Assembly: GCA_036676985.1 (NCBI GenBank)
Contig: JAKFBU010000046.1
Location: 1-13,170, forward strand
Origin: Candidatus Sericytochromatia bacterium
GTDB taxonomy: Bacteria > Cyanobacteriota > Sericytochromatia > S15B-MN24 > UBA4093
DNA length: 13,170 bases
Direction of reading: 5' to 3'
Below the pieces are notes generated by a model. It had not been told where the DNA came from and did no database searches. It saw only the letters and a list, made by a program, of their open reading frames with translations. Both the position numbers and the translations under genes were made by a program. Below, piece by piece: positions 1 through 8,791 of this stretch (the first letter of the stretch is position 1; each line of letters begins with the position of its first letter).

Positions 1-253
1 GGCCCAGGATCAGCAGTCGGGCGGCAAGCGCGTCGTCAACTCGATGCACCAGATCCATGCGGCCGCCGACGAGGCCGTGACGGCGACCGAGCAGATCGCG
101 AGCTCGACGAGCCAGCTCCAGGATAGGGCGGAGGGGTTGCGGGAGGCGATCGCCTACTTCAAGGCCGAAAGCACCGCCCTCCCTATACGGACCGTCCCTG
201 AGACCCGGCGTCTAGGGCAGGTCACTATACCGCAGGGCGCGCAGTCGAATTGA
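1..253 (+). CDS. 3' end of a methyl-accepting chemotaxis protein (partial, starts before the window)
   Basis: The frame is open from position 2 (AQDQQSGGKRVVNSMHQIHAAADEAVTATEQIASSTSQLQDRAEGLREAIAYFK). The heptad-like A/Q/E/S-rich helix ending in 'L.EAI..F' is typical of MCP signalling-domain C-termini. Stop is TGA at 251-253. Confidence 0.75.
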   Translation, partial: AQDQQSGGKRVVNSMHQIHAAADEAVTATEQIASSTSQLQDRAEGLREAIAYFKAESTALPIRTVPETRRLGQVTIPQGAQSN

Positions 254-311
254 AAAACTTAAGCGAACCATTTGGTAAATAATGAGCCATTCAGGACCTA
301 TCCTAGAATCA

Positions 312-340
312 TTGACCTGACAATCATATTATCGTAATAT
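312..340 (+). promoter_or_regulatory. sigma70-type promoter for the ncRNA-RT transcript
   Basis: TTGACC (312-317), 17-nt spacer, TAATAT (335-340). Predicted TSS is about 347. Confidence 0.75.
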
Positions 341-404
341 TGATCTGCCTGTAAGGAGCTTCCTTAAAGGAGCTGCCTTGAGGGGGAAAGGTAACCTTCA
401 ACAA

Positions 405-410
405 AGTCAA
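405..410 (-). promoter_or_regulatory. -35 half (TTGACT) of the split junction promoter
   Basis: Plus-strand AGTCAA at 405-410. On the minus strand it lies 4 nt before the predicted end of the repeat. Confidence 0.7.
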
Positions 411-504
411 GTTCACCAAGAACTTGATGAGTACCAGAAGCAGCCGCCACCACGGCGAACTGCCGACGAGAAGGGTGTGCATCCAGCACGCGTCTACCTG
501 TTCC

Positions 505-513
505 ATTCTATCA
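505..513 (-). promoter_or_regulatory. Extended -10 half (TGaTAGAAT) of the split junction promoter
   Basis: Plus-strand ATTCTATCA at 505-513. In the genome the hexamer 17 nt upstream is CCCTGG, which is not a -35. Confidence 0.7.
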
Positions 514-636
514 GTCCAGCCAGGCGGCCAGGGAACATTGTAACCTGGGCAAGTCTTGAGCGCGGGGGGACATTTGACGGGTAGTCGCCGCCTGACGCCC
601 TTGCCCCCCGCACTGACTTTCTCGAGCAATAATTAA

Positions 637-1926
637 ATGTCAAACGATTCATCACATGTGGGGTATCCTGACTGGTTCAGACCTAAGGGCTACCTCCATT
701 TTGATCTACCGATCCGTAACCCAAGGCAGATTAACCAGTATTTAAGCCATGTAAGTGACGACCGATGGGTATCAAGCCATGACTTTCTGCCTTTTATCCT
801 CAACGAGCAAAAAGTTCACCGTAAAAAACCGAGACCAGATAATAGCCATACTAAGCTTCGGCCAATTATGTATGCAAGCCATGCCGATGCTTTAATTTAT
901 TCGTATTACAGCAGCATACTTTCTGACAAATACGAAGACCTAATACGCGATACCAATACTGCCATTACATCTATAGCTTACCGTCGGTTTCCGGATAAAA
1001 AGAGTAATATTACATTCGCAAAAGAAGCTTTTGACTTCATTATGCAAGAGGGAAACTGCATTGCCTTAGCATATGATGTGACAGATTTCTTCGGCACTCT
1101 TAACCATGAAATTCTTAAGGCTAATTGGATTCGCGTCCTAGGGCACCAACATGAAAAGTTGCCTGCTGATCACTATGCCGTATATCGATCGTTAGCAAAA
1201 TTTTGCTTTGTCGATCGAAAGGCACTCATGAATGCTCTAGGCGTCACAAAGAAGGACCAGCTTCGCAAGGATCGGTTTTGTGATATATCAGAATTTCGAA
1301 CCCTAGTTCGAAATAAACACCGCCTAATTAATAAGAATCCTAATACCGATAAAGGGATTCCCCAGGGCTCATCTGTGAGCGCCGTCCTTTCTAACATTTA
1401 CATGATCGATTTTGATGAGCGACTTTCCGATTTAGCTTGCCAATTGAACGCATTTTATCGCCGCTATTGTGACGACATTATATTTGTATGCAAACCGGAG
1501 GTGGAATGGATTGCGACTCAAGCAATCAATCACGAACTTCTCCACCTTAATTTAAATGTAAACGGAGAAAAGAAGGACGTATCTGAATTTGCAATCTCAA
1601 ATGGCCGTCAGCAACTTATTGCGCAGACGAAACCACTTCAATATCTAGGCTTTGTGTTCGATGGTGAAAAGATTGTGATTCGCTCACCATCAATGGCAAG
1701 ATATTACCGAAAGCTCAAGGCAGGTGTTCGCGCTGCCAGGAATGAGAAGAAATTTAACAGATTACAACGGATGAATAAAAAATTACTCTATGGACGATAT
1801 TCATCTCTTGGAAAAAAGAACTTCATTAGTTATGTTAAGCGCGCCAGCAATGAAATGGCTTCTGTTGAAATGCTGAGGCAAATTCGCAAGCATTGGCCCG
1901 TATTGCTAAGAGAAATGGATAAGTAG
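637..1926 (+). CDS. drt2: Defence-associated reverse transcriptase, DRT type 2 (UG2)-like, 429 aa
   Basis: RT motifs: RPIMYASHADALIY, AYDVTDFF, GIPQGSSVSAVLSNIYM, catalytic YRRYCDD (YCDD at 1465-1476), LQYLGFVF. The N-terminal WFRPKGYLHFD, the size, the YCDD variant and the upstream ncRNA fit Drt2. No maturase or endonuclease domain and no retron VTG motif. Confidence 0.88.
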   Translation: MSNDSSHVGYPDWFRPKGYLHFDLPIRNPRQINQYLSHVSDDRWVSSHDFLPFILNEQKVHRKKPRPDNSHTKLRPIMYASHADALIYSYYSSILSDKYEDLIRDTNTAITSIAYRRFPDKKSNITFAKEAFDFIMQEGNCIALAYDVTDFFGTLNHEILKANWIRVLGHQHEKLPADHYAVYRSLAKFCFVDRKALMNALGVTKKDQLRKDRFCDISEFRTLVRNKHRLINKNPNTDKGIPQGSSVSAVLSNIYMIDFDERLSDLACQLNAFYRRYCDDIIFVCKPEVEWIATQAINHELLHLNLNVNGEKKDVSEFAISNGRQQLIAQTKPLQYLGFVFDGEKIVIRSPSMARYYRKLKAGVRAARNEKKFNRLQRMNKKLLYGRYSSLGKKNFISYVKRASNEMASVEMLRQIRKHWPVLLREMDK

Positions 1927-2353
1927 AAGTTACATCTACAAGCCTTCTGAGAGAATTGGGAATGTAGTTCTCGTCGGACGTCCGTCGCGGCGTCAGACGG
2001 GTGAGGCTCGGCTTCGCATCGCGCTTAGAACTCCGCCAACTCGATGAACGCTGGTATGCAACATAAAATTAGCGGCAAAGATCTTCGCTATTGCCCAGGA
2101 CATATGTGGTGGGCTCTGGAATCTCCGCATGGAATTGTCGTGCATCAACTCAACCGTCCGTGCTTTTCAACCCTCCATCAATCGCTCGATATTCGTTAAT
2201 GGCACGCAAGATAATTGCTCGCTGACTGCGCTCTTTACCTTGAGAAAGCCCCTAAGCAGCGCTAATTCGCTCACCAAGCGATTCCCGGAACCCGCCGAGG
2301 GTTAGACACTCTTAGCCGCGCCATCTCTCATCTTCTCGCCTCCCCGGCGTCGC

Positions 2354-2388: not shown

Positions 2389-2417
2389 AGATAAATCAGA
2401 CCTTTTTTATCTTGTTT
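2389..2417. promoter_or_regulatory. Candidate Rrf2-family operator overlapping the suf TSS
   Basis: AT-rich imperfect palindromes: AGATAAA-N10-TTTATCT (2389-2412) and AAATCAGAC-N7-ATCTTGTTT (2393-2417), just downstream of the -10. Confidence 0.5.
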
Positions 2418-2471
2418 CACCCTCGCCCGGCCGGTAAGGTCGGAGAGGGGCAACGCCTTTCAGGAGCCACC

Positions 2472-4678
<2,207 letters not shown>

Positions 4679-6016
4679 ATGAAGCCCGCGATCGTCGAAC
4701 TCGTCCAGGACCCCACGGTGGCGAGCCTCCTGCGCACGCGGCCCGAGCTCCCCGAGACGGGGCTCATGAGCGTCGCCATGCTGCGCCGCGAGGCCGTCGA
4801 TCGCCTGAGCGCCCTTCCGATGCCGGGCATCAAGGACGAGGAGTGGCGCTTCACCAACCTCGCGCCCCTCAAGGAGCTCACGTTCCAGGCCCCCGAGCGC
4901 AAGCCCGAGGCCGTGACGCTCGAGTCCATCGAGCGCTTCGTCCTGCCCGAGGCCAAGGCGAGCCGCCTGGTCTTCGTGAACGGCGCCTACGCCCCGCACC
5001 TGTCGGACGTGAGCGCCCTGGGCGCGGGCATCGTCGTCAAGAACCTCGCGGACGCGGGCGACGAGGCCAAGCTGCTCGACAGCCACCTGGCGCGCCATGC
5101 GGCCTTCCGGGACGACGTCTTCCTGGCCCTCAACACGGCCTTCCTCGGGGACGGCGCGCTCGTGCACCTGGGCCGCGAACGGGTCGCCCCGGCCCCCTTG
5201 CACCTCCTGTTCGTGGCGGTGCCCGGCGCCGAGACCGTCGTCGTCCACCCGCGTGTGCTGCTCGTGGCCGAGGCCATGAGCGAGGCCATCGTGGTCGAGG
5301 ACTACGTGAGCCTGGCGGACGGCGTCACCCTCACCAACGCCGTGACGGAGCTCTTCCTGGCGGACGACGCCCGGATCAAGCACGTGCGCCTGCAGCGCGA
5401 GAGCCGCCAGAGCTACCATCTCGGCCGGTCGGCCGCGGTGCTCGGCCGCGACAGCTCGTACCACTCGCACGCGGTGACGCTCGGCGCGGCCTTCAGCCGG
5501 CACGAGCCCACGGTGCTCCAGACGGCCGAGGGCACGGACGCCAGCCTCAACGGCCTGGTGCTCCTGTCGGGCGAGCAGTTCGCGGACACCCACAGCGTCA
5601 TCGACCACGCCAAGCCCCACGGCACGAGCAACCAGCTGCACAAGTGCGTCCTGGGCGGCACGTCGCGCGGGGTCTTCAACGGCAAGATCCTGGTGCGGCA
5701 GCACGCGTCCCAGACCAACTCGGCCCAGGCCAACCGCAACTTGCTGCTCACGCAGAAGGCGCGGATCGATACCAAGCCCCAGCTCGAGATCTTCAACGAG
5801 GACGTGCGCTGCTCGCACGGCGCCACCGTCGGCCAGATCGAGCCCGAGGAGATCTTCTACCTGCGCAGCCGCGGCCTCTCGGAGGCCGATGCCCGCCACC
5901 TGCTCATCTTCGCGTTCGCGGCCGAGGTCCTCGACGGCCTGCCGGTGCCGTCCCTCAAGGACGACCTGCGCGACCACGCCCTGGAGCAGATGGCGTCGGC
6001 CAAGGAAGGACGGTAG
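4679..6016 (+). CDS. sufD: Fe-S assembly protein SufD
   Basis: EEWRFTNL, GVFNGKILV, IDTKPQLEIFNEDVRCSHGATVG, FYLRSRG, plus position in the operon. Confidence 0.95.
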   Translation: MKPAIVELVQDPTVASLLRTRPELPETGLMSVAMLRREAVDRLSALPMPGIKDEEWRFTNLAPLKELTFQAPERKPEAVTLESIERFVLPEAKASRLVFVNGAYAPHLSDVSALGAGIVVKNLADAGDEAKLLDSHLARHAAFRDDVFLALNTAFLGDGALVHLGRERVAPAPLHLLFVAVPGAETVVVHPRVLLVAEAMSEAIVVEDYVSLADGVTLTNAVTELFLADDARIKHVRLQRESRQSYHLGRSAAVLGRDSSYHSHAVTLGAAFSRHEPTVLQTAEGTDASLNGLVLLSGEQFADTHSVIDHAKPHGTSNQLHKCVLGGTSRGVFNGKILVRQHASQTNSAQANRNLLLTQKARIDTKPQLEIFNEDVRCSHGATVGQIEPEEIFYLRSRGLSEADARHLLIFAFAAEVLDGLPVPSLKDDLRDHALEQMASAKEGR

Positions 6017-6019
6017 GAC

Positions 6020-7269
<1,250 letters not shown>

Positions 7270-7270
<1 letters not shown>

Positions 7271-7749
7271 TGAGCTCTCCTAGTCAGCTCTACCAGGAAG
7301 TGATCCTGGAGCACAACAAGAAGCCCCGCAACTACGGCCTCCTCGCGGAGTCCAACCGGCGCGCCGAGGGTCGCAACCCGCTCTGCGGCGACCACATCAC
7401 GTTGACGCTCAACGTCGCGGACGACAAGATCGACCAGATCGGCTTCGAGGGCCACAGCTGCGCCATCTGCAAGGCGTCCAGCTCGATGATGACGAGCACG
7501 GTGAAGGGCAAGACCGTCACCGAGGCCGAGGAGCTGGTGCAGCAGTTCCGCGACATGGCCACCGGCAAGCTGAACGCCGAGTCGCCCGAGAGCCGGCTGG
7601 GCCGCCTCAAGGTGTTCTCGGGCGTGGCCGGGCTGCCCTCGCGGGTCAAGTGCGCGGTGCTGCCCTGGCACACGCTGCATGCCGCCCTCCACAACGAAGA
7701 GGCCGTGAGCACCGAGGGCAGCGCCGACCCGGTCGCCAAGCAAGGTTAA
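7270..7749 (+). CDS. sufU: SufU-type sulfur transfer protein (NifU_N family)
   Basis: LYQEVILEH..KPRNYG, NPLCGD, CAICKASSSMM, RVKCAVLPW. TAATG overlap with sufS. Confidence 0.93.
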
Positions 7750-7762
7750 GAAGGATTCGAGT

Positions 7763-8320
7763 ATGCCGAAGATCGCCGAGATCGAGATGACGCCCAACCC
7801 CAACGCGCGGAAGTTCGTCCTGAAGGACCCGCTGACCTACGGGGTCGCCCGCTCGTACGACAACGCCACGGTGGCGCAGTCGGACGCGCTGGCGACGGCG
7901 CTGTTCGCGATCCCGCACGTCTCCAACGTCTACTACCTCGACCGCTACCTGACGGTCACGCAGGACGGCGGCGCCGATTGGAACGACCTCTTGCGCGAGG
8001 TGGCCGTGCCCATCCGGGCGGCCGAGGCCGCGACGGCTCCGGCCGTGCCCCAGACCGCCCAGGACGTCTCGCACCTGGCCTCGGACCCCGAGTCGGGCGC
8101 GCTGCTGGTCCAGATCAACGAGATCCTCGACAAGCAGATCCGGCCCGCGCTCATGATGGACGGCGGCGGCCTGGAGATCGTGGGACTCGAGGGCAAGGAG
8201 CTGCGGATCCACTACCACGGCGCCTGCGGCACCTGCCCCAGCGCCACCTTCGGCACCCTGATGGCGATCGAGAACCTGGTGCGCAGCGTGGACCCCGAGC
8301 TCATGGTGGTGTCGGTCTAA
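7763..8320 (+). CDS. Nfu/NifU-family Fe-S carrier (Nfu_N plus NifU C-terminal domain)
   Basis: N-terminal TPNPNARKF, and C-terminal IRPALMMDGGG...GACGTCPSA with a CXXC motif. Confidence 0.9.
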   Translation: MPKIAEIEMTPNPNARKFVLKDPLTYGVARSYDNATVAQSDALATALFAIPHVSNVYYLDRYLTVTQDGGADWNDLLREVAVPIRAAEAATAPAVPQTAQDVSHLASDPESGALLVQINEILDKQIRPALMMDGGGLEIVGLEGKELRIHYHGACGTCPSATFGTLMAIENLVRSVDPELMVVSV

Positions 8321-8338
8321 CCTGGAAAGGAAGGCGAC

Positions 8339-8791
8339 ATGAAGCTGACGAAGGCCTCCGAGTACGGGATCCTGACGATGGTCCACCTGGCCAAGCAGCC
8401 GCCTGGTCAGCTGTCGGACATCGCCCGCATCGCCGAGGACGAGCGCATCCCCGCGTCGTTCCTGGGCAAGCTCGTGACGACGCTCGTCAAGGCGGGGCTC
8501 ATCCGCTCGCAGCGGGGCTCGCAGGGCGGCATCGAGCTGGCCCGTCCGGCCTCGGACATCACGCTCCGGCATGTCATCGAGGCGACCGAGGGCGAGATCG
8601 CGGTCAACGAGTGCACGTCGAGTTCGGCCTATGCCTGCTTCCGCAGCGGCTGCGCCGTGCAGGGCGCGCTGCGCTCGGCGCAGAACGCCTTCTTGGAAGC
8701 GCTGGAAGGGTTCACGCTGGAGGGGTTGGCGCAGCTGGACCGGTACCAGCCGCAGGCGGTGACGCTGACGCCACTGATGAGCGAGCGGTAA
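8339..8791 (+). CDS. Rrf2-family transcriptional regulator with three Cys (probable Fe-S sensor)
   Basis: MKLTKASEYG, IPASFLGK, LVKAGLIRSQRGSQGGIELARP..ITL..VIEA.EG, and a C-X7-C-X4-C cluster. SD-like GGAAGG upstream. Confidence 0.92.
   Translation: MKLTKASEYGILTMVHLAKQPPGQLSDIARIAEDERIPASFLGKLVTTLVKAGLIRSQRGSQGGIELARPASDITLRHVIEATEGEIAVNECTSSSAYACFRSGCAVQGALRSAQNAFLEALEGFTLEGLAQLDRYQPQAVTLTPLMSER

Follow-up and report, generated by a model that had tools for sequence, protein, structure and literature searches.

The window analysed here, a stretch of 13,170 nucleotides from Candidatus Sericytochromatia bacterium, contains a two-part DRT2 locus, in which a putative non-coding RNA (ncRNA, approx. 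347-636) is followed on the same strand by a gene for the Drt2 reverse transcriptase (RT, 637-1926). Within the ncRNA we place a predicted template, a predicted pseudoknot and, on the opposite strand, a proposed neo unit together with the two halves of a promoter that come to proper spacing only when the ends of the unit are joined. The coordinates of these features are collected in Table 1.

Table 1. Features of the DRT2 locus, in positions of the window.
Feature	Position	Strand	Basis or remark
Low-GC island, ncRNA and RT only	170..2350	.	GC profile; limits approximate
Promoter-like site TTGACC, 17 nt, TAATAT	312..340	+	9/12 matches; implies a start at ~347
Putative DRT2 ncRNA: 5' handle, template, 3' scaffold	347..636	+	Directly upstream of the Drt2 ORF; ends inferred
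Basal helix closing the template: 389-393/495-499, extension 385-388/501-504	385..504	+	Predicted fold
Proposed neo unit, 123 nt / 41 codons, reverse complement of the template	401..523	-	Circular frame and promoter spacing; limits not fixed
-35-like hexamer TTGACT of the junction promoter, near the unit 3' end in cDNA sense	405..410	-	Hexamer match; in frame, it makes two codons
-10-like hexamer TAGAAT of the junction promoter	505..510	-	17 bp from the -35 only once 401 is joined to 523
Pseudoknot strand 1, core GCGGC at 524-528	521..528	+	Aligns with conserved G(C/T)GGC; abuts or overlaps the template 3' end
3' hairpin, 8-bp G/C stem 562-569/604-611	562..611	+	Pair probabilities 0.998-1.0; loop carries strand 2, 587-594
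Drt2 reverse transcriptase, 429 aa, YCDD intact	637..1926	+	NF041746.1, PADLOC, RVT_1, solved Kpn Drt2

The protein encoded at 637-1926 reached 447.4 bits against the NCBIfam equivalog NF041746.1 (Drt2), for which the cut-off is 390, and it covers profile positions 1-415 of 416. An RVT_1 domain was found in it, the best of the PADLOC profiles was Drt2 (E 5.8e-139, with UG17 as the next family at E 1.9e-25), and residues 10-417 align to the solved K. pneumoniae Drt2 with E 2.8e-87. Judged by these profile and homology matches, the ORF is a Drt2 (UG2) RT. Together with the DRT2-like layout predicted for the leader (described below), this confirms the class that the original prediction, made from the letters alone, had assigned to the locus; the window is a DRT2 system, of a kind already known since 2024.

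The RT is a distant relative of the RT of K. pneumoniae DRT2 (KpnDRT2). Among one-per-species genomes, JGI metagenomes and IMG/VR the best matches reached 40-42% identity, against 39% for plasmids and phages; no closer relative was found in 60 related genomes, and none above 43% in genomes, metagenomes, viral contigs, plasmids or phages. Of the 65 RTs placed in a quick tree (SH-aLRT support only), L002 came closest to the window RT, with 43% identity. The window RT falls outside a 14-row clade (support 97) that contains all 11 rows labelled with the flank motif ACA, and it groups, with weak support, among Bacteroidota, CPR and cyanobacterial lineages. Canonical DRT2 template geometry was not found in these tree neighbours, nor in two DRT2 loci of Calothrix plasmids. 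Going by protein identity, we regard the window RT as a deep-branching DRT2 member, at most 43% identical to anything retrieved.

The GC content is 0.40-0.53 within the island and 0.62-0.66 in its flanks. The left neighbour is the 3' end of an open frame whose tail resembles a chemoreceptor signalling domain by eye only, and a Pfam search of this frame gave no match. To the right lies an iron-sulfur operon (2412-8791) with SufB, a SufC-like ABC ATPase, SufD, a class-V aminotransferase, a NifU-like protein, Nfu and an Rrf2 regulator, and no defence island was seen in the neighbouring genes examined. The approx. 420 bases between the RT stop and the right edge of the island (1927-2350) hold no ORF of at least 60 aa and no Rfam match. 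Window DNA occurs in soil and groundwater metagenome runs (20 public runs matched, all as assembled contigs and none recorded as RNA), four of which were compared with the window at the level of these contigs. No back-joint appeared inside 401-523, but contigs cannot display such a joint and so bear on concatemers in neither direction. The ncRNA part of the island is identical in contigs of three runs from two studies, and the sole RT difference among the contigs compared is 1377 G>A, at a third codon position and synonymous by reading of the codon. Contigs from two groundwater runs join 168/169 to 2350/2372 and omit approx. 2.2 kb; support for the join is weak, its shorter side consisting of 23-29 letters at a likeness threshold of 80, and it may tentatively be read as an empty site in related strains that lack the island.

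The neo mechanism was published in 2024 by Tang et al. (PMC11100668) and Wilkinson et al. (PMC12039810). As described in the available text of these papers and of a later one (PMC12596737), the DRT2 template is bounded by two ACA motifs, and the repeat reaches from the first ACA to just before the second. The two promoter hexamers (-35 and -10) stand at opposite template ends, so that only the junction creates a promoter, with a 17-bp spacer; the -10 is followed by a ribosome-binding site and a start codon, and the inferred repeats are all divisible by three with one open frame. In the K. pneumoniae system the template comprises bases 29-148, and G155-C159 form a pseudoknot with G250-C254 (PMC12596737). 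The DRT2 homologues used here for comparison (L001-L123) share this order, namely 5' handle, flank motif, -35 complement, template, -10 complement, flank motif and pseudoknot, with periods of 84-162, all divisible by three (96-141 in the 20 lineages used for the comparison of peptides and Shine-Dalgarno sites).

The leader of the window resembles that of KpnDRT2, as far as the latter is described, in lying upstream of a Drt2 RT on the same strand, in a template closed by a stem, and in a pseudoknot that ties the loop of a 3' hairpin to a strand immediately following the template, the last two being predictions in the window. The promoter-like site in front of it is weak on its own, because the region had seven such sites against 3.8 expected; it does stand upstream of the leader, where KpnDRT2 is reported to have its single shared promoter (PMC11100668). 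In the predicted fold, the pairs of the basal helix have probabilities of 0.73-0.81 (389-393/495-499) and 0.35-0.48 (extension), and inside it stand three hairpins (406-414/420-428, 440-448/454-463 and 475-480/486-491) with probabilities of 0.91-1.0.

The second pseudoknot strand, 587-594, is the exact 8-nt complement of 521-528. A hairpin stem of at least 8 pairs together with a pseudoknot of at least 8 was found in 0/2000 shuffles, and with looser values of 7 and 6 in 25/2000, the thresholds having been picked after the data were seen. Across the aligned homologues the two strands covary (GCGGC/GCCGC, GTGGC/GCCAC and CCGGC/GCCGG), and they correspond to the published K. pneumoniae pseudoknot (PMC12596737). 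Searches for similarity of the RNA itself were negative: Rfam returned no family for 200-2400, a comparison of the leader with 122 other loci (blastn-short, nhmmer) returned only chance 12-13-mers and no nhmmer match, and a covariance model with 18 pairs, made for the pseudoknot hairpin from 7 relatives, found nothing in 505-636 at E up to 10, with four weak matches elsewhere. The scaffold is also much shorter than in KpnDRT2, with 63 nt between the pseudoknot strands in the window and 95 in the published RNA.

The main support for the predicted period is the geometry of the junction promoter. The complement of the -35 begins at 405 and that of the -10 at 505, and a spacer of 17 bp then gives a period of exactly 123, which is divisible by three and leaves the circular frame open; KpnDRT2 has a period of 120, and shares with the window the 17-bp promoter formed only across the repeat junction, the divisibility by three and the single stop-free frame. 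The promoter TTGACT-17 bp-TAGAAT scores 10/12 rather than 12/12. We counted how often four features occur together in shuffles of 347-636: a TTGACA/TATAAT-like pair of at least 10/12, a spacer of 17 bp that exists only across the junction, a period divisible by three, and an open frame. All four were present in 25/2000 shuffles. Within the window, 123 is the only period that gives a promoter of at least 10/12 at the optimal spacing plus an endless frame. A Bacteroidota-type promoter was also considered and dropped: a 7/8 look-alike of the -7 element overlaps the -35, and no -33 element was seen by eye.

Seven relatives (L001-L005, L008 and L011) have junction promoters of 11-12/12 and periods of 132, 129, 132, 132, 120, 111 and 120, respectively, all divisible by three and open. 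In these relatives the 17 bp are divided by the junction into 6 + 11, while in the window they are divided into 4 + 13 with the sum kept, which looks compensated rather than decayed. On the first side, only one nucleotide separates ACA-1 from the -35 complement in the window, against three in the K. pneumoniae RNA. On the other side, going from the -10 complement to the pseudoknot, the relatives have 11 nt, the flank motif and a linker of 3 nt, and the K. pneumoniae RNA, in its published coordinates, has ACA-2 at 149-151, then 3 nt, then G155; the window has neither ACA-2 nor linker. Between the -10 complement and the pseudoknot strand the window has 13 nt (10 if all 8 pairs form), against 16-23 nt in the 14 lineages whose pseudoknot call was judged credible; 21 lineages besides the window were examined, and the other calls look spurious. 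With spacer halves of 4 + 13, the template of the window thus ends at the pseudoknot strand, and any landing site for the cDNA lies inside the pseudoknot.

The original prediction had proposed that this locus builds its own Neo with a period of 123 nt and 41 aa, from a unit running exactly from 523 to 401. The period is supported by the promoter geometry, the frame and the shuffles, and the exact limits are not fixed, as ACA-2 is missing. Any junction placed within the 17-nt spacer keeps both period and promoter but alters the junction peptide.

The arithmetic of the predicted unit is correct: the minus strand of 523->401 is 123 nt, or 41 x 3, and exactly one of its three circular frames is stop-free and yields the repeat that had been claimed. 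The predicted transcription start at approx. 498 does follow from the minus-strand TAGAAT at 510-505, and the next in-frame ATG does have its A at 482; the in-frame ATGs of the neo frame are 506-504 and 482-480. The position of the frame relative to the promoter differs from that in the ACA-clade relatives, in whose frame TAGAAT would be a stop. The open frame is not evidence by itself, since a circular open frame on the minus strand occurred in 1042/2000 dinucleotide-preserving shuffles of 401-523 (exactly one such frame in 891/2000). Nor does it set the limits of the unit, because the stop-free stretch of the minus strand extends beyond it to 102 codons in all (324-632), a length reached or exceeded in 118/2000 shuffles of 300-640.

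This run also contains a TTG-initiated ORF of 101 residues at 629-324 on the minus strand, and one could suppose that the antisense frame is simply an ordinary chromosomal gene. We consider this highly improbable. The ORF has no Pfam or NCBIfam match, it overlaps the entire RT leader, and its length is within reach of the shuffles just cited. The plus strand likewise has an open run of 87 codons, so the leader is stop-poor on both strands. On that strand there is also a sense ORF of 68 aa at 378-584; neither it nor the 87-codon run has a family match, and both are probably chance products of the stop-poor stretch.

The repeat peptide is moderately hydrophobic, with a GRAVY of 0.54 that lies in the range of 20 other lineages (0.43-1.57) and is not above shuffles, since a fraction of 0.197 of shuffled open frames reaches it. 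Within the 123-nt unit no Shine-Dalgarno core (GGAG, GAGG or AGGA) was found 4-12 nt before an in-frame ATG, GTG or TTG, unlike in KpnDRT2 as described, and such a core is present at that spacing in 16 of the 20 other DRT2 lineages. The start of the RT gene at 637 has no core either, and host genes nearby (suf) carry them. The lack of such sites at both the RT and the predicted neo, along with the low GC content, speaks for recent acquisition from a lineage less dependent on them.

The remaining difficulty is the jump by which the RT would return to the start of the template. The junction 401|523 that had been predicted stands on one side only: the ACA anchor is present at 401-403, and at the place of its partner, 524-526, the sequence is GCG. 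At periods of 121-125 the longest exact flank match in the window is 2 nt in each case. The value of this comparison can be judged from other loci. From 40 loci with a junction promoter of at least 11/12 at 17 bp (a set that leaves out loci scoring 10 or with 16/18 bp spacing), merging of identical flanks gave 33 flank pairs, 26 of which match over at least 3 nt at the promoter-defined period and 14 over at least 4. When the period was shifted by 1 or 2, the same was true of 29/132 and 1/132 controls, respectively. The motif varies by lineage, and the two copies match in each case: ACA, ACAG, ATTG, GATTG, TTTAACT, GTAT(T), CGTATT, GTTTG and AAT. In the available text of the three papers cited (PMC11100668, PMC12039810 and PMC12596737) only ACA is described for DRT2 templates. 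Since the identity of the motif shifts across lineages yet the pair stays matched, our results support a homology-guided jump as the general rule, and the window, with no matched motif, departs from its homologues; among those with good promoters only L007 is like it. This is a Moraxellaceae DRT2 (L007:1218-1360) with a 12/12 junction promoter, a period of 117 and no matched flank repeat. In all, 7/33 of the other lineages are likewise without a clear flank repeat.

Other units bounded by exact repeats were tried and rejected. The only ACA pair that would delimit a unit of 90-165 nt, 401 with 535-537, gives a period of 134, which is not divisible by three and has neither promoter nor frame. 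Among further exact flank repeats, a 7-mer (period 149), two 5-mers (147 and 142) and a 4-mer (134), none yields a junction promoter, and the best junction promoter among the 163 candidate units flanked by an exact repeat of 3 nt or more was 9/12.

It could be asked whether the system works but makes a cDNA repeat other than 401-523, by another landing point or period, by untemplated bases, or in a role independent of an endless frame. Such a reading matches what Tang et al. suggest for divergent clades, in the available text of PMC11100668, and it fits the lack of a flank repeat at 123, the template abutting the pseudoknot, the absence of a ribosome-binding core, and the place of the RT outside the ACA clade (support 97) among lineages in which canonical geometry was not found. 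Because the frame is open over 324-632, other periods divisible by three would be open as well. Against it, only 123 restores a promoter of at least 10/12 at optimal spacing, the periods 149, 134 and 142 are not divisible by three, 147 has no junction promoter and would put the pseudoknot strand inside the template, and the exact repeats themselves occur at about chance frequency by an estimate from k-mer counts. We think it unlikely, though it is the most probable of the alternative readings.

A less probable explanation, which we rate as distinctly unlikely, is that the window carries a decaying or inactive copy: the RT gene is intact, but an RNA stripped of jump motif and translation signals would no longer give a functional Neo. 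Neither ACA-2 nor an equivalent is present, the stretch between the -10 complement and the pseudoknot falls 3-10 nt short of its length in the 14 credible calls, both hexamers are suboptimal, and a Shine-Dalgarno core is missing, in contrast to the host's own genes. However, the 17-bp spacing is kept with halves of 4 + 13 in place of 6 + 11, as though compensated, and both the RT frame with its YCDD and the neo frame are open. The island is moreover unchanged in contigs of two studies, and the want of a clear flank repeat is shared by the 7/33 lineages mentioned, with L007 keeping a 12/12 promoter.

A Neo-type gene with a period of 123 is in our view the best reading of the locus, and we hold this as probable. 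A single transcript from approx. 347 would carry both the structured ncRNA (approx. 347-636) and the message for the Drt2 RT (637-1926), the two parts of an anti-phage system. The RT would copy the template over and over into a tandem-repeat cDNA with a 123-nt period, and, once this cDNA became double-stranded, each junction would set TTGACT and TAGAAT 17 bp apart and so create a promoter. The repeat RNA transcribed from it would carry one stop-free frame for Neo, a moderately hydrophobic repeat of 41 residues, and translation of this frame would bring the infected cell to arrest. For this locus the concatemers, their transcription and translation, and the toxicity of the product are inferred from KpnDRT2-like features of the sequence. 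The exact junction and the junction peptide are candidates only, because there is no flank repeat, the template stands against the pseudoknot strand and there is no Shine-Dalgarno core; for the first two of these reasons the reading also does not account for how the jump would be guided.

To hypothesize, the lineage of the window might repeat without a matched flank motif, in that the cDNA end copied from AACAA (400-404) lands on the pseudoknot strand at GGCGG (523-527). At a period of 123 this is the only run (400-404 against 523-527) in which the cDNA end could pair with the 3' flank. The landing would then use one G-C pair and four G-T wobbles, or the RNA fold alone, and the pseudoknot strand would double as a re-priming site that must open in every round; both points are speculation. 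A jump of this structure- or wobble-guided type would differ from the homology-guided jump described for KpnDRT2. Mismatches in the flank motifs of other lineages, counted by eye, comprise approx. 4-5 of a G-T-compatible kind against 3 of the reverse kind, and as this is no clear bias, the wobble landing remains speculation; we give the proposal as a whole only a small chance.

The original prediction was also right to flag that standard annotation would miss an endless neo gene, as ordinary annotation cannot see such genes. Most relatives of KpnDRT2 already have a bioinformatic Neo prediction, and DRT2 loci have been catalogued by the thousand (a 2026 preprint counts 13,034). The interest of this locus is rather that a deep-branching RT is accompanied by a template that keeps the promoter-and-frame logic without the flank repeat thought to guide the jump. 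The window locus is a natural test of whether the flank repeat is truly required.

Similar arrangements are known from other systems. In circular insertion-sequence junctions of the IS911 type, a promoter likewise exists only after two ends join, an analogy drawn in the available text of PMC11100668 and PMC12039810; the IS911 joint is made by transposase on DNA and not by reverse transcription of RNA, and it involves no endless frame. DRT10, with its telomerase-like synthesis, resembles the proposed mechanism in that an RT repeatedly copies a short RNA template, and differs, as far as it is described, in being protein-primed, in its short repeats and in a separate SLATT effector. One abstract equates DRT10 with UG17, the model on which the window RT scored E 1.9e-25 against 5.8e-139 for Drt2.
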